DNA of 32,256 bases from positions 79,337 to 111,592 of IMG/VR virus record IMGVR_UViG_3300028585_000002; one strand, 5' to 3'. The position numbers and the translations under genes were made by a program. The notes beneath the pieces are model-generated. The model saw nothing but the letters and a program-made list of their open reading frames with translations, was not told where the DNA came from and made no database searches. Positions 2 through 9,071 of the stretch are shown here, piece after piece (positions within the stretch are counted from its first letter, which is position 1; the number at the start of each line of letters is the position of its first letter). Source of the DNA: a virus (taxonomy: Duplodnaviria; Heunggongvirae; Uroviricota; Caudoviricetes).

Positions 2-202
2 GCCGAGACCACCGCGACGATCGCCGCTGCGGCCGACAAGCCGGTTGCGATCGGCAAGGCGCTGGGCTTCAAGACGATCCGCGGCGCCGACGAGCGCGAG
101 ATCGCGATCTTCATGGCCCAGCTCGAGGAAGACTCGGGCATGGCCGGCGCCGACGCATTCATGGAATTCGTCCGCACCATGAATAAGTCACCGGTGACGT
201 AA
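2..202 (+). CDS. 3' end of a gene truncated by the window edge, probably a ParB-like protein
   Basis: Frame +2 is open from base 2 to TAA 200-202 with GC3-rich codons: AETTATIAAAADKPVAIGKALGFKTIRGADEREIAIFMAQLEEDSGMAGADAFMEFVRTMNKSPVT*. The LGFKT...EE.SG..G.DAF tail and position upstream of the ABC ATPase recall ParB-like genes of SSU5-type elements. The diagnostic N-terminus is outside the window. Confidence 0.5.
   Translation, partial: AETTATIAAAADKPVAIGKALGFKTIRGADEREIAIFMAQLEEDSGMAGADAFMEFVRTMNKSPVT
184..201. promoter_or_regulatory. Palindromic operator copy 1 (TAAGTCACCGGTGACGTA)
   Basis: Matches the consensus of nine other copies. It lies in the last codons of the upstream ORF, with no convincing -10 box in register. 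Confidence 0.7.
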
Positions 203-360
203 TGAGAGACGATATTTGCTGCTGGATTGCCGATCGTCTGCCGCGGCGCCTGGTGTACTGGTGCGCCGTTCGCTTGATGGCCAACGCTTCGCGTCAGCGC
301 TCGGCGCGCGAAGTGAACGCGCTGACCCCGGCCGGCTGCCTGAAGGCCTGGGCGAAATGA
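202..360 (+). CDS. Small hypothetical protein, 52 aa (MRDDICCWIADRLPRRLVYWCAVRLMANASRQ...)
   Basis: ATG overlaps the upstream TAA (TAATG) and its TGA overlaps the next ATG (ATGA), consistent with translational coupling. Not in the supplied ORF track. Confidence 0.65.
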   Translation: MRDDICCWIADRLPRRLVYWCAVRLMANASRQRSAREVNALTPAGCLKAWAK

Positions 361-557
361 CCGAGACCACCCTGAAACGCGGCTCGATTGTGCTGGGCAT
401 GACCCGTACGGCGATCGTGCGCGGCATGGGCTGCGTCTGCACCGGCCCGGCCTACGGCACCCCTTACTGCCCCTGCACGCTCGCCTGGATGCAGGGCCAG
501 GTCTGCCACGACCCGGACGACCACGACGACAACGACTACGAGGATCGCAAGAAATGA
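357..557 (+). CDS. Small Cys-rich hypothetical protein, 66 aa (CxC-x9-CxC, acidic tail)
   Basis: ATGA overlaps at both ends. Sequence MTETTLKRGSIVLGMTRTAIVRGMGCVCTGPAYGTPYCPCTLAW... The longer 216 start in the ORF track overlaps the preceding ORF. Confidence 0.65.
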   Translation: MTETTLKRGSIVLGMTRTAIVRGMGCVCTGPAYGTPYCPCTLAWMQGQVCHDPDDHDDNDYEDRKK

Positions 558-1387
558 CCACCTACACCATCGACAAGCGCTATGAGACATCCGTCGAGCG
601 CACCCCGCGCGTGCTCGCGCTGGCCGAAGCATTCGGCCTGGGCCTGGACGACAAGGAATTCGTCGTGTTCGACAACCTGAAGCTGGACATCGAGCAGGGC
701 GACGTGGTCTACGTCACCGGCCAGTCCGGCGCCGGCAAGAGCACCGTGCTGCGCGAGCTGCAGCGCCAGATGGCCGACGAAGGTCTGGTCGTCGCCGACA
801 TCGACAAGGTCGTGCTGGAAGACAAGCCGCTGACCGACCAGATCGGCGCCACGCAGGAGCAGGGCCTGGCTTACCTGTCGCTGGCCGGCATCAACGACGC
901 CTACCTCTACCTGCGCAAGCCCGCCGAGCTGAGCGACGGCCAGCGCTACCGCTTCCGCCTGGCCAAGCTGATCGAGTCCGGCGCCAAGGTCTGGGTCGCC
1001 GACGAGTTCCTGGCCGTCCTGGATCGCACCGCGGCCAAGATCATCGCCTACACGCTGCAGAAGACCGCGCGCCAGGTCGGCGCAACGCTGCTCGTGGCCA
1101 CCACCCACACGGACATGGTCGCCGACCTGGCGCCGAGCCTCTACATCGAAAAACGCTACCGGGAAAAGATCCTGGTCGAGCGCACTGCGCGGCCAGCGCA
1201 CGAGCAGCGTGTGTACGACGAAAAGCATGAGCTGGACGAGCGCCTGGGCAAGCTGCTGGCCTTCTTCAGCAACCCGATCTTCGCCGGCCTGGATCCGGTC
1301 GAGCAAACCCGCCTGCGCGCGCAAGCCAGCGCGATGGGCCTCTATTCCGAAACCCTTGGCGAACGCATCGCCGCCTTCAAGAGCTGA
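554..1387 (+). CDS. Soluble ABC-family ATPase (COG2401-like ABC half) with an appended C-terminal helical domain
   Basis: Walker A GQSGAGKST, signature LSDGQ, Walker B VWVADEF, H-switch ATTH. No transmembrane segments and no permease gene nearby. The last ~60 aa (HEQRVYDEKHELDERLGKL...LGERIAAF) resemble a small standalone phage protein family. Confidence 0.92.
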   Translation: MTTYTIDKRYETSVERTPRVLALAEAFGLGLDDKEFVVFDNLKLDIEQGDVVYVTGQSGAGKSTVLRELQRQMADEGLVVADIDKVVLEDKPLTDQIGATQEQGLAYLSLAGINDAYLYLRKPAELSDGQRYRFRLAKLIESGAKVWVADEFLAVLDRTAAKIIAYTLQKTARQVGATLLVATTHTDMVADLAPSLYIEKRYREKILVERTARPAHEQRVYDEKHELDERLGKLLAFFSNPIFAGLDPVEQTRLRAQASAMGLYSETLGERIAAFKS

Positions 1388-1390
1388 ATC

Positions 1391-1717
1391 ATGCATAACA
1401 CCCACAACACCGCCTTCTTCGACGACGTGCTCAAGGCCTCCTACGCCGAGCCTGTCGTGGTCATGTTCCACGCCAGCTGGTGCGGCCCCTGCAAGTCGAT
1501 GAAGCCGTTGGTCGAGCGCCTGGCCACCGACATCGGCTTCACCCTGGTCGGCGTCGACGCCGGCACCGAGCGCCAGCTGGCCGCCAGCGAGAGCGTGCGC
1601 GCCGTGCCGACCCTGATCGTCTACAAGGACGGCAAAGCGGTCGGCAGCCCGTCCGCCGGCGGCAAGACCGAGACCGCGCTGCGCACCTTCCTGGCTACCG
1701 CAGGTGTCTGGGCATGA
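1391..1717 (+). CDS. Thioredoxin
   Basis: WCGPC active site, VPT cis-Pro motif (AVPTLIVYKDGK), 108 aa. Confidence 0.95.
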   Translation: MHNTHNTAFFDDVLKASYAEPVVVMFHASWCGPCKSMKPLVERLATDIGFTLVGVDAGTERQLAASESVRAVPTLIVYKDGKAVGSPSAGGKTETALRTFLATAGVWA

Positions 1718-1788
1718 CCGCGTTCGAATGCTTCACCCTGGCCATGGTTGGTGCCGGCGCGCTGTTGATCTGGAAGTGGCCGGCATGA
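1714..1788 (+). CDS. 24-aa single-helix hydrophobic micropeptide (MTAFECFTLAMVGAGALLIWKWPA)
   Basis: Exactly fills the gap between thioredoxin and the GNAT-like gene, with ATGA overlaps at both ends (1714-1717 and 1785-1788). Confidence 0.55.
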   Translation: MTAFECFTLAMVGAGALLIWKWPA

Positions 1789-2759
1789 TCATCCTGGACA
1801 ACGAGGACATCCTGGTCGAGCGCCGCGCGCGCCCGGCCGGCCACCGTCTGTCGCTCCTGGACCGCATCTACATCGAGCGCGGCACCAAGGAGGACTGGGA
1901 AGTGCTGCACGAGCTGCACTACAAGGCCGACAAGACCGGTATCGGCCCGCGCTACTGGCGTTGCATGCTCGACGGCCAGGTGATCGGCGTGGGCGTCATG
2001 ACGGTGCCGAAGATGCTGCTCTCTGGCCGCAACGAGGCGATGAAGTACATGCGCCCGAACGTGAATGGCCGGGACACGCGCCTGGTCAACCGCACGCGCG
2101 CCATGTGGCTCAACGCCCAGGCCTGCACGAACAGCCGCCTGGTGCTCGACACGATGTACCGCGGCGCCGGCATCGCCTACCGCATGCAGAACCTGATGAT
2201 GCGCATGACCGGCTGCCGGTTCGTCGAGTTCCAGTCGTCGATGAGCAAATTCAATCCGTTCGCGGCCAAAGCCGGCATGCGCTTTACGAAACCGAAGCGC
2301 TCGGCCAACTACGCGAAGGGCCTGGCCTTCTTCCAGCGCTGGTTCGTGTCCGTCCCGATGGACTACGTGGGCATCAAGGAAGAGATCGACGCCATGTCGC
2401 CGGCGGTGCAGAAGAAATGCATCGCCGAGATGCGCAAGTTCTACTACACCTGCTCATCCATGGAAAAGTCGGGCGATAACCGCGCCAACGGCACCAGTCG
2501 GGTCGATGGCATGGAAGTGGGCTACTTGCTCAAGAGCCTGCAGCAGCTGGTCCTGGCCAGCCCGCTCTATGGCATCTTCGAAAACCCCGACCATGGCATC
2601 GAGCTGCCCGCGCGCCTGCCGCTGTTCGCGTTCGACAACCAGAGCCTGACCGAACCGCTCGACTTGGCGCGCGCACGCGAGCAAATGGGCACCATCCCAG
2701 CCCCCAAATTGACCGACACCCCGGAAGACGAAGATGAACCTGACGACGAAACAGATTGA
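1785..2759 (+). CDS. GNAT-fold acetyltransferase-like protein (partner of the ABC ATPase), 324 aa
   Basis: Acetyl-CoA-binding motif A-like SRLVLDTMYRGAGIAYRM and downstream MSKFNPFAAKAGMRF. Start placed at ATG 1785 (ATGA overlap) rather than 1704. Confidence 0.75.
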   Translation: MIILDNEDILVERRARPAGHRLSLLDRIYIERGTKEDWEVLHELHYKADKTGIGPRYWRCMLDGQVIGVGVMTVPKMLLSGRNEAMKYMRPNVNGRDTRLVNRTRAMWLNAQACTNSRLVLDTMYRGAGIAYRMQNLMMRMTGCRFVEFQSSMSKFNPFAAKAGMRFTKPKRSANYAKGLAFFQRWFVSVPMDYVGIKEEIDAMSPAVQKKCIAEMRKFYYTCSSMEKSGDNRANGTSRVDGMEVGYLLKSLQQLVLASPLYGIFENPDHGIELPARLPLFAFDNQSLTEPLDLARAREQMGTIPAPKLTDTPEDEDEPDDETD

Positions 2760-3057
2760 ACTGCTGCGCGTGATCGGCGCCGGCAACGGCCCGGCCCAGC
2801 CATGCGACCTGGACGAGATCCTGGACCGGGTCCGCTACGAGACCACCAAGGCGAGCCTGCAGTTCTCGATCCGCGCCCTGGTGGCTCACGGCCTGGTCGA
2901 GAAGCTGCCGACGGAGAAGCGGCGCGGGCGCCAGCGCCGGCCGATCACCGTAACCGAGCTGGGCCGCGGCTACGCCGGTGGATCCGGTCCCGGCGCGCGC
3001 GTGTCCGTCACTCCCGAGGAGGACGAGATGGACGAAATCGTGGAATTGATGGAGTAG
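2734..3057 (+). CDS. Winged helix-turn-helix DNA-binding protein
   Basis: LTTKQIELL helix, SLQFSIRALVAHGLVEK recognition helix and strand, basic wing RRGRQRR and ITVTELGR, typical of wHTH (MarR/PadR/LexA-N-like) folds. Confidence 0.75.
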   Translation: MNLTTKQIELLRVIGAGNGPAQPCDLDEILDRVRYETTKASLQFSIRALVAHGLVEKLPTEKRRGRQRRPITVTELGRGYAGGSGPGARVSVTPEEDEMDEIVELME

Positions 3058-3059
3058 CA

Positions 3060-3295
3060 ACTTATCACTCCCGCGATCATCTTTCTCCTGGAAACTTATG
3101 ACTCATAAGTGGTTTCCATGGGGAGGAGGGTGAAAAAGTGGACTTATGCTTTCTTTTGGGAAACTTATGCATGACCCCCTTTTCTATAAAGTATTTCATA
3201 CTTAGAAGAACATAAGTATTTAATGAATTACTTTAGCGAAAACGGTGGCATGCATAAGTCCTCGGAATGCATAAGTTCACGCCGGATAGATAAGT
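3060..3295. repeat. AT-rich intergenic array of ACTTATG / CATAAGT heptamers
   Basis: ACTTATG at 3094, 3142, 3163; CATAAGT at 3104, 3211, 3253, 3270; variants ACTTATC 3060 and GATAAGT 3289. Perfect inverted repeat ACTTATGA-C-TCATAAGT at 3094-3110; GGAAACTTATG repeated at 3090 and 3159. Confidence 0.8.
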
Positions 3296-3334
3296 CACCG
3301 GTGACTTGACACGGAACGGCAAAAGGATTAAAGT
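3291..3334 (+). promoter_or_regulatory. Operator copy 2 plus sigma70-like promoter for terS/terL
   Basis: TAAGTCACCGGTGACTTG at 3291-3308; TTGACA 3306-3311, 17 bp, TAAAGT 3329-3334. Confidence 0.85.
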
Positions 3335-3354
3335 CTGCCCGGTATTGTTCCTCC

Positions 3355-3385
3355 ACGGGCGCCTCTCCCTGCGCCCGTTTTTTTT
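3355..3385 (+). terminator. Intrinsic terminator in the terS leader
   Basis: Stem ACGGGCGC (3355-3362) / GCGCCCGT (3371-3378), 8-nt loop, run of 8 T (3378-3385). Confidence 0.8.
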
Positions 3386-3404
3386 GCCTGAAGGAATTAC
3401 AGTA

Positions 3405-4058
3405 GTGACAGCAGCCGCGAAGACCACGAAAAACCGCCTCACTGTGAAGCAGTGGGCCGAAGCCGAAGCCCTCTGGGAGAGCGGCACGGTCACGTACGAA
3501 GATTTGATGAGCAAGTTCGGCCTGGCCCAGTCCTCGTTCGAACGGCACTTCAAGAAGAAGGGCATCGTCAAGGGCGCCAAAGCCGCGGCGATCAAGGCCA
3601 AGGTCGACGAGAAGCTGGCTGTCGCCGCGATCGACGAGGCAACGATCATCGCCGCCCGGATCAAGGAGACCAAAGAGCAGCACTACACGATGTCGGCCAA
3701 CCTGTCGAAGCTGGCCTATTCGGAGATCCTGCAGGCGAAGAAGGACGGCCAGCCCGTCGCTGTCGCCATGAACAACCTCAAGGCGCTGGATAAGGCGATG
3801 GACGTGCTGGCCAAGGCCCGCACCGAGCGCTACGCCATCCTGGGCCTGGACCGTCCGGACGCGATCGACCCTGACGAGATGCCGGAGCTGGTCATTTCCG
3901 AGCTGACCGCTGAGCAGATCGAGGAGATGCGCAAGCGCGATGAAGCGGACCTGGACGCGCTGCCTGCCGGCGCCAACCAGAACGTTGTGCAGCCTGACGA
4001 GGAAGACCTCGACGATGGCGATGGCGACGACGAAAACGCGGTTGTCGAGGAATCTTGA
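3405..4058 (+). CDS. terS: Terminase small subunit
   Basis: N-terminal HTH (WAEAEALWESG...EDLMSKFG..SSFERHFKK), helical middle, acidic tail, immediately upstream of and overlapping terL. GTG start at 3405 with AAGGA 9 nt upstream. Confidence 0.8.
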   Translation: MTAAAKTTKNRLTVKQWAEAEALWESGTVTYEDLMSKFGLAQSSFERHFKKKGIVKGAKAAAIKAKVDEKLAVAAIDEATIIAARIKETKEQHYTMSANLSKLAYSEILQAKKDGQPVAVAMNNLKALDKAMDVLAKARTERYAILGLDRPDAIDPDEMPELVISELTAEQIEEMRKRDEADLDALPAGANQNVVQPDEEDLDDGDGDDENAVVEES

Positions 4059-5326
4059 TGGCTTCGAAGAAGGCGTCCCTCAAGCTGCACCCGAAGCAGA
4101 TGCTGGTGTACCGCTCGCAGAAGCGATTCCGCGTCGTGGTCGCCGGCCGTCGCTGGGGCAAGACGGCGCTCTCGCGCGTCCTGATCATCACGCGCGCGCG
4201 CAAGCGCAAGTCCAAAATCTGGTACGTCGCCCCGACGTACAAGATGGCCAAGCAGATTATGTGGAACGACCTGCTCGAGGCGATCCCGAAGCGCTGGATC
4301 CGCAAGGTCAACGAGACGCGCCTGGAAATCACGCTCGTCAACGGCACCATCATCGAGCTGAAGGGCGCCGACAAGGGCGACTCGCTGCGCGGCGTGGGCG
4401 TCGATTTCCTCGTGCTGGACGAATTCCAGGACATCGACGCTGAGACCTGGACCAAAGTCCTGCGCCCGACCCTGGCCGACCGTCAGGGGCACGCCATCTT
4501 CATCGGCACCCCGAAGGCATACAACTACCTCTACACGCTGTACCAGTACGGCCAGCGTGGCGACGTGTACCTCGACGACAAGGGCCGCGAGCGTCCCAAC
4601 ACCTGGGCGTCCTGGCAGTTCCCGACCATCACGTCGCCATTCATCCCGAAGTCCGAGATCGAGGCCGCGCGCAACGACATGGACGAGAAATCGTTCAAGC
4701 AGGAATTCGAAGCCAGCTTCGAAACCATGTCCGGCCGCGTCTACTACCCGTTCGACCGGATGGAGCATACCGGCAGCTACCCGTTCAATCCGAAGCTGCC
4801 GATCTGGGTGGGTATGGACTTCAACATCGACCCGATGTCCACCGTGATCTTCCAGCCGCAAAAGAACGGCGAGCTGTGGGCGGTCGACGAGATCGTCCTG
4901 TTCTCGTCGAACACGGAGGAGATTTGCGAGGAGCTGGAAAAGCGCTACTGGCGCAACCTGGTCCAGATCGTCGTCTACCCCGATCCGGCCGGCGGCCAGC
5001 GCCAGCACGCGCGCGGCGAGACCGACCTCGACATCCTGCGCGAGAAGGGCTTCAAGCGGATCAAGTACCGCAAGAAGCACCCGGCCGTGGCAGACCGCGT
5101 CAACGCCGTGAACCGCCTGCTCAAGGCGGCCGACGGCACGATCCGCTTGCGCGTGGACGACAAGTGCAAGCATTTTATCAACGCACTGGAACAGACGATC
5201 TACAAACCTGGCAGCCGCGACGTGGACAAGTCCGGCGGCACCGAGCACAGCGCCGACGCGGGTGGTTACGCGATCGAGCTGGAATTCCCGGTGCGCAAGG
5301 TGGAGATCGGTGGCATGTCTCGATGA
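4058..5326 (+). CDS. terL: Terminase large subunit
   Basis: Walker A AGRRWGKT, Walker B FLVLDEFQD, GTP coupling motif, RNase H-like nuclease motif GMDFNID and C-terminal HSADA. ATG overlaps the terS TGA. Confidence 0.96.
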   Translation: MASKKASLKLHPKQMLVYRSQKRFRVVVAGRRWGKTALSRVLIITRARKRKSKIWYVAPTYKMAKQIMWNDLLEAIPKRWIRKVNETRLEITLVNGTIIELKGADKGDSLRGVGVDFLVLDEFQDIDAETWTKVLRPTLADRQGHAIFIGTPKAYNYLYTLYQYGQRGDVYLDDKGRERPNTWASWQFPTITSPFIPKSEIEAARNDMDEKSFKQEFEASFETMSGRVYYPFDRMEHTGSYPFNPKLPIWVGMDFNIDPMSTVIFQPQKNGELWAVDEIVLFSSNTEEICEELEKRYWRNLVQIVVYPDPAGGQRQHARGETDLDILREKGFKRIKYRKKHPAVADRVNAVNRLLKAADGTIRLRVDDKCKHFINALEQTIYKPGSRDVDKSGGTEHSADAGGYAIELEFPVRKVEIGGMSR

Positions 5327-5366: not shown

Positions 5367-7004
5367 ATGACTACTCGACTTGAAACCGCCAAACCTGGCG
5401 TGATCGGCACCATCGACCCTGTCGAGGCCAGCGCCTCGACCCCGCTGGCTATCCTGACGGATGACCAGAAGCGTCTGCGCGCGCTGATCACCCGCCGGCA
5501 CCCGGAATACGCAGAGAGCAAGCCGCACTGGGAATTCCTGGACGCGACGTACGAAGGCGGCCGCGAGTGGTTCCAAAACGGGAACATCTTCCGCTACATC
5601 AAGGAAGGTGAGAACGAATACCGCGATCGCCTGGCGCGCTGCTACCGCTTCAACCACACCCGCGAGGTGGTGGACCTGCTGAACAAGTACCTGTTCAAGC
5701 AGCACATCACCCGCAACGATGCAGATGCCCCGGAAAGCGTCAAAGCGTTCTGGGCGCGCGCCACGAAGAACGGTCTGGGGATCAAAGACTTCGTGCGCAA
5801 GGCGGGCAAGCGCGCGTCTGTGCTGGGTCGCATCGGGATCGTCGTCGACAACAACGCCAAGACCGACGCCGTCATTTCCAAGGAAGACGAGAAGAAGGTT
5901 GGCGTGCGCACCTATGCGTACGTCGTCGGCCCGACCCAGCTGCTGGACTACGCCTTCGATGACGACGGCGAGCTGAGCTGGATCCTGATCCAGGAAGTGG
6001 CCCGCGACGCTGCCGACCCGATGGCTTCCTCGGGCGCGTTGATCCCGCGCTTCCGCCTGTGGAGCAAGACCGAATGGCGTCTGTTTGAAGAACGCCAGAT
6101 CGGCCGCACCCACAAGACGCGCATCGTCGAAATCGGCAACGGCCAGCACGACCTCGGCGCCGTCCCGGTCATCCTGCACGACCACATCATTTCCGACGAG
6201 GAGTTCACCGCGCCGGCACTGATCGACGACATCGCCTACCTGGACCGCGCGACCGCGAACTATCTGTCGAACCTGGACGCGATCATCCAGGACCAGACGT
6301 ACTCGCAGCTGGCCATGCCGGCGCAGAACGTGCTGCCTGGCTCGGACAACTACAACACCCTGATGGAAATGGGCACCAAGCGCACGTTCCTGTACGACGG
6401 CGAGGGCGGCGCGCAGCCGTTCTACCTGTCGCCGGACCCGAAGCAGGCCCAGATGATCCTGGCGGTCATCAACAAGATCATCAACGAGATTTACCACACC
6501 TGCGGCCTGGCTGGCGAACGCACCAAGCAGGACAACAGCCAGGGCATCGACAACAGCTCGGGTGTGGCCAAGGCGTACGACTTCGAACGGGTCAACGCGC
6601 TGCTGCAAGCGAAGGCAGACAGCCTGGAAGTGCTCGAGAACAAGATCGTGCGCCTCGTCGCGCTGTGGAATGGCGAAGAAGCGAAGGTGAGCACGGACCT
6701 CGTGTCCTACCCGGACAACTTCGACACCCGCGGCCTCTACGACGAGTTCGACATCTCCGCTCGCCTGATGCTGATCGACGCGCCGAAGGAAGTGCGCCAG
6801 CAGCAGATGGAAATGGTCATCGACAAGCTGTTCCCGCAGCTGGCCAAAGACCTGAAGGCGAAGATGCTGAGCGCTTTGAAGGACTGGCCGGTCGATCCGA
6901 TCGAGCAGGCCCAGGCGATGGCTTCGGCCACCGCACCCGACCAGGCCGCGCTTCAAAAGAGCGCTTCCGGTCAAGTCGCCAAAGAATCCGTGGCGAACGA
7001 ATAA
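5367..7004 (+). CDS. Portal protein (SPP1 gp6-like)
   Basis: 545 aa directly after terL, with YEGG near the N-terminus and SGVAKAYDF (SG.A...) motif typical of gp6-like portals. Confidence 0.88.
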   Translation: MTTRLETAKPGVIGTIDPVEASASTPLAILTDDQKRLRALITRRHPEYAESKPHWEFLDATYEGGREWFQNGNIFRYIKEGENEYRDRLARCYRFNHTREVVDLLNKYLFKQHITRNDADAPESVKAFWARATKNGLGIKDFVRKAGKRASVLGRIGIVVDNNAKTDAVISKEDEKKVGVRTYAYVVGPTQLLDYAFDDDGELSWILIQEVARDAADPMASSGALIPRFRLWSKTEWRLFEERQIGRTHKTRIVEIGNGQHDLGAVPVILHDHIISDEEFTAPALIDDIAYLDRATANYLSNLDAIIQDQTYSQLAMPAQNVLPGSDNYNTLMEMGTKRTFLYDGEGGAQPFYLSPDPKQAQMILAVINKIINEIYHTCGLAGERTKQDNSQGIDNSSGVAKAYDFERVNALLQAKADSLEVLENKIVRLVALWNGEEAKVSTDLVSYPDNFDTRGLYDEFDISARLMLIDAPKEVRQQQMEMVIDKLFPQLAKDLKAKMLSALKDWPVDPIEQAQAMASATAPDQAALQKSASGQVAKESVANE

Positions 7005-7990: not shown

Positions 7991-8034
7991 TAAGTCACCG
8001 GTGACTTGACAATGCAGCCAATTTGGGGTATTGT
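7991..8034 (+). promoter_or_regulatory. Operator copy 4 plus promoter for major capsid gene
   Basis: TAAGTCACCGGTGACTTG 7991-8008; TTGACA 8006-8011, 17 bp, TATTGT 8029-8034. Confidence 0.85.
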
Positions 8035-9042: not shown

Positions 9043-9071
9043 TTGTGACTCAGTCACCGGTGACTTAGAAT
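9043..9071 (+). promoter_or_regulatory. Operator copy 5 plus promoter for head-completion genes
   Basis: TTGTGA 9043-9048, 17 bp, TAGAAT 9066-9071; operator TCAGTCACCGGTGACTTA 9050-9067; extra overlapping inverted half-site GTGACT-C-AGTCAC 9045-9057. Confidence 0.8.

Follow-up and report, generated by a model that had tools for sequence, protein, structure and literature searches.

The beginning (positions 2-5326) of a 32,256-nucleotide stretch of DNA from a tailed virus (the window hereafter; bases 79337-111592 of the 111,592-bp virus record IMGVR_UViG_3300028585_000002, a 112-kb phage with direct terminal repeats) carries ParB-like, ATP-binding cassette (ABC) ATPase, thioredoxin, GCN5-related N-acetyltransferase (GNAT) and winged helix-turn-helix (wHTH) genes ahead of the terminase genes. 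Sequence comparison identified this block as the SSU5/nickie-lineage form of a widespread virus module made of ParB_N proteins and a COG2401-type ABC-ATPase/GNAT, in which the ABC and GNAT genes are the two halves of one split ABC-GNAT enzyme. The split site between the two halves is a variable cargo islet, and in this phage the ABC half carries a Sequestin domain as an in-frame fusion. The best-supported function of the GNAT/ABC pair is acylation of a DNA base, DNA being the acyl acceptor, a reading to which we give somewhat less than even confidence. The module itself is widespread and had already been predicted in silico, and what is new here is the sponge islet and the ABC::Sequestin fusion.

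The 10 kb upstream of the window was also analysed, as L004, in which a coordinate equals the window coordinate plus 10000. Pfam and PHROGs profile searches of window 2-5326 recovered all the named genes of the block, all on the + strand. The earlier calls made from the letters alone (ParB-like, soluble ABC ATPase, thioredoxin, GNAT, wHTH and TerL, with a terS-like gene before TerL) were confirmed by profile, motif or model evidence, and we are highly confident that the anatomy and family assignment of the block are sound. The genes of the module and its islet are the following:

L004 8514-9182, + strand: ParB1 (ParB_N, E 4.1e-8; phrog_723)
L004 9537-10202 (3' end = window 2-202), + strand: ParB2, ParB_N-type (phrog_930, E 1.8e-71 for the whole and 1.7e-12 for the tail)
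554-1387, + strand: ABC ATPase open reading frame (ORF; PF00005, E 3.9e-13)
554-1183, + strand: soluble ABC ATPase core, residues 1-210 (PF00005; phrog_293, E 4.9e-46)
1184-1387, + strand: Sequestin domain in frame with the ABC core (PF21825, E 1.2e-16)
1391-1717, + strand: thioredoxin (PF00085, E 3.6e-21; WCGPC)
1785-2759, + strand: GNAT-fold protein (phrog_886, E 3.4e-133)
2734-3057, + strand: wHTH (phrog_900, E 1.4e-20)

The translation of the ABC ATPase retained intact Walker A (GQSGAGKS), signature (LSDGQ), Walker B (VADEF) and H-loop (TTH) motifs, and the closest solved relatives of its core were nucleotide-binding domains (NBDs) of the transporter type. The GNAT protein had no Pfam or NCBIfam match, and its fold was assigned from motifs A and B, a profile match to a PDB entry and an AlphaFold2 (AF2) model used for fold searches. 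In an alignment of 42 homologs, motif A (R126-G-x-G129-x-A) followed a beta strand, motif B read NPF..KAGM, and H45, Y46, G68, R82, R118, R126, E148, M153 and G164 were invariant. The profile matched the N-acetyltransferase 3fb3 in the PDB (E 9e-4) over both motifs. The AF2 model (predicted local distance difference test score, pLDDT, 89.5; predicted TM score, pTM, 0.82) retrieved GNATs only, both with Foldseek and with the Foldseek-independent VIA, where all 50 of the top 50 matches were GNATs with Z of 9.2-11.1. The sequence-only reading had named the absence of a GNAT fold as the point on which it would fail, and the fold was confirmed by this model and its matches. About 90 residues (170-260) form a helical insert ahead of the last strands of the fold, the protein ends in an acidic tail and the GNAT core has a pI of 10.1. 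As modelled, the fold shows no preference between DNA, RNA, protein and small-molecule acceptors.

When 1.84 billion representatives were searched for GNAT homologs, 319 relatives were obtained. Many of them were proteins of about 410-570 residues in which residues 10-170 of the GNAT aligned C-terminal to an ABC_tran domain, at about positions 210-380 of the fused protein. The ABC core aligned with the N-terminal half of fused ABC-GNAT proteins of 450-500 residues, and an N-terminal AEAFGLG motif was common to both. The ATPase motifs and GNAT motif A were invariant across the fused forms, indicating that both activities are under selection. A linker segment, I-L-V-E-R, was found both at the tail of the ABC core and at the head of the GNAT, encoded by identical 15 nt at 1169-1183 and 1809-1823, and the same arrangement was present in phage nickie; therefore, the split duplicated the linker and predates the divergence from nickie. 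Some homologs (P0187, P0264, P0186, P0223 and P0178) carried an intein in the ABC domain (Hint and LAGLIDADG) or were joined to Gins51_C, PolB or TFIIB-repeat regions, and these PolB-, GINS- and intein-bearing fusions may partly be gene-calling read-throughs.

The order helicase (- strand), ParB1, ParB2, ABC, gap, GNAT, wHTH, terS-like, TerL was kept in every contig with enough flank among 80 related viral contigs, and the same order was found in the cultured phages nickie and RHph_X66 and in a Klebsiella SSU5-like phage. This conservation of gene order is far beyond chance. In the SSU5/nickie/RHEph10 lineage, the GNAT occurred in 31 phage records of 84-122 kb with 40-48% identity. The fused form was surveyed with one genome per species, which gave 53 loci, mostly from Bathyarchaeia and Planctomycetota, and the neighbouring ORFs were clustered in 34 of them. 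TerL lay within 6 kb of the fused gene in 18 of the 34 loci, usually immediately upstream and on the same strand, ParB_N was adjacent in seven, and tail-tube and YQBQ-like genes were nearby. Individual cultured phages showed related arrangements: ParB, ABC-GNAT, a gene annotated as 'tRNA-methyltransferase' and terminase in Gordonia phage Axumite; ParB, ABC-GNAT, three small genes and TerL in Leptospira phage LE4; and an unannotated fused gene upstream of TerL in Pseudoalteromonas SL25. The module occurs widely in tailed viruses that infect bacteria or archaea, where it is routinely annotated, wrongly, as a transporter or partition system.

The fused proteins appear in databases as COG2401 or 'MK0520-type ABC ATPase fused to predicted acetyltransferase', the names of the virus system predicted by Iyer et al. 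(2013). The block in the window showed the following features of a COG2401-type module: the ABC motifs, GNAT motif A, homology of both proteins to the fused halves, and adjacent ParB_N and packaging genes. It shares with the predicted system the two catalytic domains homologous to the fused proteins, the ParB_N partner, the virus context and the predicted role in DNA-base acylation. It differs in having a cargo islet between two separate genes for the enzyme, two ParB paralogues, a dedicated wHTH and a fusion of the ABC half to Sequestin.

Among 57 distinct relatives, the ABC and GNAT genes lay between 39 and 3146 bp apart. A CxxC thioredoxin occupied this gap in 43 of the 57 distinct loci, and the view of the thioredoxin as a private addition of this phage was rejected on that count. 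Other genes at the same site encoded a Tad2-like protein (locus L071 and Rhizobium phage RHph_X66), Acb4 (L097) and a stand-alone Sequestin (L108), as well as a family of small hydrophobic proteins, probably membrane proteins, and several unknown proteins. Sequestin (PF21825), Tad2 (PF11195) and Acb4 (PF13876) are phage sponges for immune nucleotides, so that three published sponge families share this islet, and the split site is a predictable place to seek new anti-defence genes.

Unrelated small proteins were also observed in the islets of other loci, at L111 6587-6868, L112 6162-6590, L088 6469-7014, L092 6649-7008 and L115 3380-4045, with further ones in nickie (L001:5646-5981) and in the Klebsiella phage (L002:4584-5135). 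The genes of these small islet proteins may represent new anti-defence genes.

The last 67 residues of the ABC ORF matched PF21825 with 60.8 bits against a cut-off of 24.8, covering profile positions 1-60 of 61 with residues 214-273. A protein atlas gives the family the name Sequestin, and the atlas model of the ABC ORF protein superposed on Sequestin clusters with TM scores of 0.90-0.93. The pocket residues R, E, Q and R at offsets 0, +4, +38 and +52 corresponded to R7, E11, Q45 and R59 of SequestinB in a comparison by position only. Proteins of PF21825 have been shown experimentally to be homodimeric sponges for 3' cyclic ADP-ribose (3'cADPR) that cancel type I Thoeris (bioRxiv 10.1101/2025.07.12.664507). 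On balance, the domain fused to the ABC ATPase is expected to be functional as a predicted 3'cADPR sponge. Published Sequestins stand alone, with about 60-80 residues, or are fused to other sponges, whereas the fusion partner here is an ABC ATPase, a combination that is not listed in bioRxiv 10.1101/2025.07.12.664507. The earlier description of this protein as a plain ABC ATPase missed the anti-Thoeris sponge domain, and part of the block belongs to a different counter-defence.

Two sibling phages had an ABC core 99% identical to that of the window, with a stop at residue 219 just past ILVER and no Sequestin domain, and the ABC::Sequestin fusion is therefore private to this genome. The sibling ABC proteins diverged exactly past ILVER, where the next residues in the window, TARPAH, resemble the head of the GNAT, RARPAGH. 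This suggests that the Sequestin cassette may have entered by recombination at the duplicated linker. The fusion is a test case, provided by nature, for the activity of a sponge that is attached to a second dimeric protein.

The thioredoxin was the sole gene with a thioredoxin/glutaredoxin (Trx/Grx) fold in the genome, and a ribonucleotide reductase (RNR) large subunit was encoded at C1:38025-39542, 42 kb from it. As it is the only redoxin and an RNR is present, the thioredoxin need not belong to the module, and it probably serves the phage ribonucleotide reductase rather than the acyltransferase. The sequence-only reading had an acylation system supplemented with a thioredoxin; the gene is better read as islet cargo. 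A role as a required part of the acyltransferase was likewise unsupported, with other genes standing at this place in SSU5, nickie and the Rhizobium relatives.

Several known systems offer points of comparison for the enzyme. Mom of phage Mu is a GNAT-fold DNA adenine-N6 acyl modifier, the product of a late gene that acts before packaging to evade restriction. Mom (8bv8) and the GNAT of the window are both encoded by phages and share the fold (Z 10.4 over 153 residues, root-mean-square deviation 3.7), a value that falls inside the 9.2-11.1 band of unrelated GNATs, and Mom was not matched by sequence or by profile against the PDB. Whereas Mom works without an ATPase or ParB, the GNAT here is the split half of an ABC-GNAT enzyme that always accompanies ParB_N; it also has the 90-residue helical insert and its own invariant set of H-Y, R82, R118 and E148, and no com-like control. 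TmcA and NAT10 are ATPase-coupled GNATs acting on nucleic-acid bases (N4-acetylcytidine in RNA), and both were among the Foldseek matches of the GNAT (2zpa and 9b0i, respectively). They resemble the present pair in coupling an NTPase to a GNAT that acetylates a nucleic-acid base, but their ATPase is of the helicase type, N-terminally fused and accompanied by a tRNA-binding domain, whereas here an ABC ATPase stands with DNA-side partners. No Pfam match to TmcA-type domains (DUF1726, Helicase_RecD or tRNA-binding) was found in any protein of the block. The fold comparison with Mom and TmcA proposed in the sequence-only reading bore out a likeness in fold to both and to GNATs in general, but it revealed no closeness specific to Mom.

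For the ParB proteins, a close parallel is a phage ParB with an N-terminal NTP-binding and a C-terminal domain and no obvious DNA-binding domain, which experiments have proven to activate its cognate thymine dioxygenase and to be needed by it on double-stranded DNA (PNAS 2026, PMC13229309). The two systems have in common a phage ParB without an obvious DNA-binding domain beside a DNA-modifying or putatively DNA-modifying enzyme, and by Pfam and PHROGs the ParBs of the window have the same domain make-up as the ParB of that 5mYOX system. The enzyme here is a GNAT with an ABC ATPase and not an iron/2-oxoglutarate dioxygenase, and its dependence on ParB is predicted by analogy.

Acyl modification of a DNA base by the virus ABC-ATPase/GNAT and ParB was predicted by Iyer, Zhang, Burroughs and Aravind (Nucleic Acids Research 2013), as restated in section 3.4.7 of PMC7824862, and acyl transfer to a DNA base is likewise a prediction for the module described here (PMC7824862). 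No experimental study of the module was found in the literature. The ABC/GNAT was linked to ParB_N, TerL, PolB and GINS across bacteria and archaea, in agreement with a function on the DNA side. ABC ATPases dimerise on ATP, and late in infection the ABC halves would do so and would bring or clamp two basic GNAT subunits onto replicated phage DNA. On duplex DNA, the ParB_N proteins, in which no HTH was detected, would activate the enzyme or act as adaptors, and DNA contact or control would fall to the wHTH. The GNAT would then move an acyl group from acyl-CoA to a DNA base ahead of packaging by the terminase, and the acylated virion genome would be masked from host restriction. In this phage, the islet would add the Sequestin sponge domain and the thioredoxin to the split site. 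If the ABC/GNAT pair does acylate DNA, Mom would be joined by a second class of GNAT DNA modifiers, one that depends on ATP. A more comprehensive proposal is that the ParB1-to-wHTH operon is a two-arm counter-defence, in which a ParB-activated, ATP-driven ABC/GNAT would place an acyl mark on DNA, the split site would act as a landing pad for sponges, and the ABC::Sequestin protein would both power masking and soak up 3'cADPR; this combination we regard as tentative and rather unlikely as a whole.

Several observations weigh against acylation of DNA. Literature searches brought up no phage of this lineage with DNA reported to be modified, and in the fold comparison the GNAT stood as near to protein or small-molecule GNATs as to Mom (Z 9-11 for all). 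Acidic pI values (4.6-5.1) were obtained for the ABC core and for both ParBs, and no DNA-binding domain was detected in these proteins. With sponge genes as neighbours, the whole operon could just as well be directed at immunity proteins or signals of the host and not at DNA. The module has its own promoter-like site and a spacer before terS, and its coupling to packaging is only positional. The thioredoxin was found at this exact position in 75% of the relatives, which is more persistent than unrelated cargo would predict. The ATP-driven acylation of DNA near packaging put forward in the sequence-only reading is upheld as the best-supported putative function, on the basis of the split enzyme, the DNA-side linkage and the ParB precedent, but it is already a published prediction. 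The SSU5/nickie/RHEph10 lineage includes cultivable phages, in which a prediction standing since 2013 is open to direct test.

A protein could be the acceptor instead, with the ABC-GNAT and its ParB adaptor acylating a protein involved in packaging or replication (TerS, TerL, portal, polymerase or GINS, possibly for the timing of packaging) or a host defence or transcription protein. The Rac GNAT of phage phiKMV acts on RNA polymerase, and most fold matches of the GNAT were protein or small-molecule N-acetyltransferases (NatA, RimI and Naa60) with Z equal to that of Mom. The anti-defence cargo of the operon and the acidic tails of the GNAT, wHTH, orf66 and terS-like proteins, which suggest protein-protein contacts, point the same way, and phage GNATs that modify host proteins are described in section 3.4.4 of PMC7824862. 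However, known protein GNATs need no dedicated ATPase, known ParB_N partners serve DNA-modifying enzymes, and the linkage to TerL and ParB holds in archaeal, Planctomycetota, actinobacterial and spirochaete viruses with very different proteins, so that a universal substrate such as DNA fits better; we consider a protein acceptor unlikely. Acetylation of an RNA base in the manner of TmcA and NAT10, in which the ATPase would remodel tRNA or rRNA and the GNAT would acetylate a base, for example to shield phage or host tRNAs from anticodon nucleases, appears quite improbable. The ATPase-plus-GNAT logic of these two Foldseek matches is the same, nickie has tRNA genes near the module, and the 'tRNA-methyltransferase' annotation in Axumite lies between ABC-GNAT and terminase, but the ATPase is of the ABC type and not a TmcA helicase-type domain, the block showed no tRNA-binding domain, the partners ParB_N, TerL, PolB and GINS belong to the DNA side, and the linkage is to packaging and not to translation genes.

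The module might also handle DNA without modifying it covalently. In that case ParB, ABC and wHTH would assist in recognition, condensation, segregation or presentation of the genome during packaging or plasmid maintenance. The substrate of the GNAT would then be a small molecule, either a polyamine or an immune signal, unless the protein has a purely structural part. Phage-plasmids such as SSU5 belong to the lineage (PMC7969092), loading on DNA is a classical property of ParB proteins, the terS spacer is the constant neighbour of the module, and immune-nucleotide sponges are found within it. Such a role is nevertheless very doubtful, as a separate ParA locus is present, lytic relatives and archaeal and planctomycete proviruses keep the module, the invariant acyl-CoA motif and candidate catalytic residues mark the GNAT as an enzyme, and a terS-like gene is present and needs no replacement. 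Finally, most database records name the ATPase 'ABC transporter ATP-binding protein', and its best sequence matches were NBDs of transporters. A transporter subunit is nonetheless practically inconceivable here and was rejected, since the partner half is a GNAT, with which the ATPase forms a single protein in many organisms, since virus packaging modules are the setting of the gene, and since neither this operon nor its syntenic counterparts in relatives contained a gene for a permease or binding protein. The earlier argument against a transporter, that the run holds no permease or substrate-binding gene, was borne out.

Acylation of DNA before packaging would give the two ParBs and the wHTH accessory roles, and their sequences were examined with those of the neighbouring genes. 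Only ParB_N was detected by Pfam in ParB1 and ParB2, and no HTH was found by Pfam in either. Both matched the ParB_N part of phage DNA methyltransferase fusions, and the N-terminal part of models of ParB-fused DNA methyltransferases was matched by ParB2 (phrog_498, 1.4e-37; PADLOC MTase_II, 2.8e-22). A single ParA, of 252 residues (AAA_31, CbiA), was encoded about 7.5 kb upstream, at L004:892-1928 (C1:70228-71264), and an overlapping 93-residue ORF downstream of it had no family match; the pair probably forms a partition locus of type Ib, as would suit a phage-plasmid. Because this ParA locus is separate, the module ParBs are unlikely to be plasmid partition proteins. The central HTH and the cognate ParA in the same locus that characterise a partition ParB were not found for them, and lytic relatives keep both ParBs.

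The wHTH is a small winged-helix protein with an acidic tail, and its residues 1-80 have a pI of 10.0. Its match to HTH_27 (20.5 bits) was under the Pfam cut-off of 22.2, and that to MarR_2 was also under the cut-off. In nearly all 80 related loci the wHTH gene came after that of the GNAT, and in all SSU5/nickie-type relatives it closed the module. No PADLOC defence-system model fitted the GNAT, and the ABC protein gave only weak matches at the ATPase level.

The remaining features in and around the block are the following:

L004 6729-8471, - strand, divergent: SF2 helicase (Pfam ResIII, Helicase_C, UvsW_N; phrog_16)
202-360, + strand: orf52 (codon-position GC)
357-557, + strand: orf66 (codon-position GC; GC at third positions, GC3, 0.91)
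3058-3404, no strand: low-GC spacer of 347 nt (promoter-like site and hairpin)
3405-4058, + strand: terS-like (phrog_867, E 4.8e-56)
4055-5326, + strand: TerL (Terminase_6C, E 1e-8; Terminase_6N, E 1.6e-7; phrog_2, E 1.1e-51)
5367-7004, + strand: portal (phrog_145)

The AF2 model of the terS-like protein (pLDDT 68.8) had helices at 14-52, 60-113 and 118-146, forming an N-terminal HTH and a long helical hairpin, followed by an acidic tail. No Foldseek match at or below 1e-3 was found for it, only a weak match to 2ao9, and there was no Pfam or PDB sequence match; the ORF is named TerS from its position and architecture only. Replacement of TerS by the ParB/ABC-GNAT was rejected, as most contexts have a terS-like gene or a small HTH gene ahead of TerL.

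Codon-position GC placed the start of the GNAT at ATG 1785 and ruled out GTG 1704, and it likewise ruled out TTG 216 as a small-ORF start. The most likely start of the terS-like ORF is GTG 3405 and not TTG 3306. Both orf52 and orf66 are coding, with a third-position GC of about 0.9 in frame. The product of orf52 is small and basic with four cysteines; its start overlaps the ParB2 stop, it had no family match in profile searches including PADLOC and it was not conserved among relatives. That of orf66 is small, with five cysteines and an acidic tail, and its gene has an ATGA overlap on each side; it had no tblastn match in the 80 related loci, and among profiles only a weak match to phrog_31399. 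The ParB2/orf52/orf66/ABC junctions overlap as TAATG, ATGA and ATGA, the gaps from ABC to thioredoxin and from thioredoxin to GNAT are 3 and 67 nt, GNAT and wHTH overlap by 26 nt, and the terS-like stop overlaps the TerL start (4055-4058).

A promoter scan placed a promoter-like site before ParB1 and the next one at 3306, before terS. No convincing terminator was found by scanning the ParB1-to-wHTH stretch, in which there were only weak 5-pair stems such as shuffled sequence also gives; therefore, ParB1 to wHTH probably constitutes one operon. The 347-nt spacer parts the module from the packaging operon and contains the promoter-like TTGACA-17-TAAAGT at 3306. The spacers of the relatives examined were about 390-770 bp long with 41-57% GC. 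The run had been described from the sequence as translationally coupled directly before terS/terL, which agrees with the overlaps from ParB2 to ABC but does not extend to terS, from which the run is separated by the spacer and its promoter-like site. A GC-rich leader hairpin at 3355-3378 with a T-run to 3385 lies between the 3306 site and the terS start at 3405, and the element at 3355-3385 may act in the packaging-operon leader as an attenuator or as a target for antitermination.

A 12-bp palindrome, GTCACCGGTGAC, at 3294-3305 directly abuts the TTGACA at 3306. Six perfect copies were present in the genome, at window 184-202, 3292-3309, 7992-8009 and 9053-9064 and at C1:44082 and C1:60226; five of the six had AA/TAAG as left flank and four were directly followed by a TTGACA-like hexamer. 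One copy encodes the last codons of ParB2. More distant relatives had other palindromes or none in the spacer, and the close relative L059 had the same palindrome at the end of ParB2 and before terS. GTCACCGGTGAC is a candidate operator of late promoters, with the wHTH perhaps as its binder.

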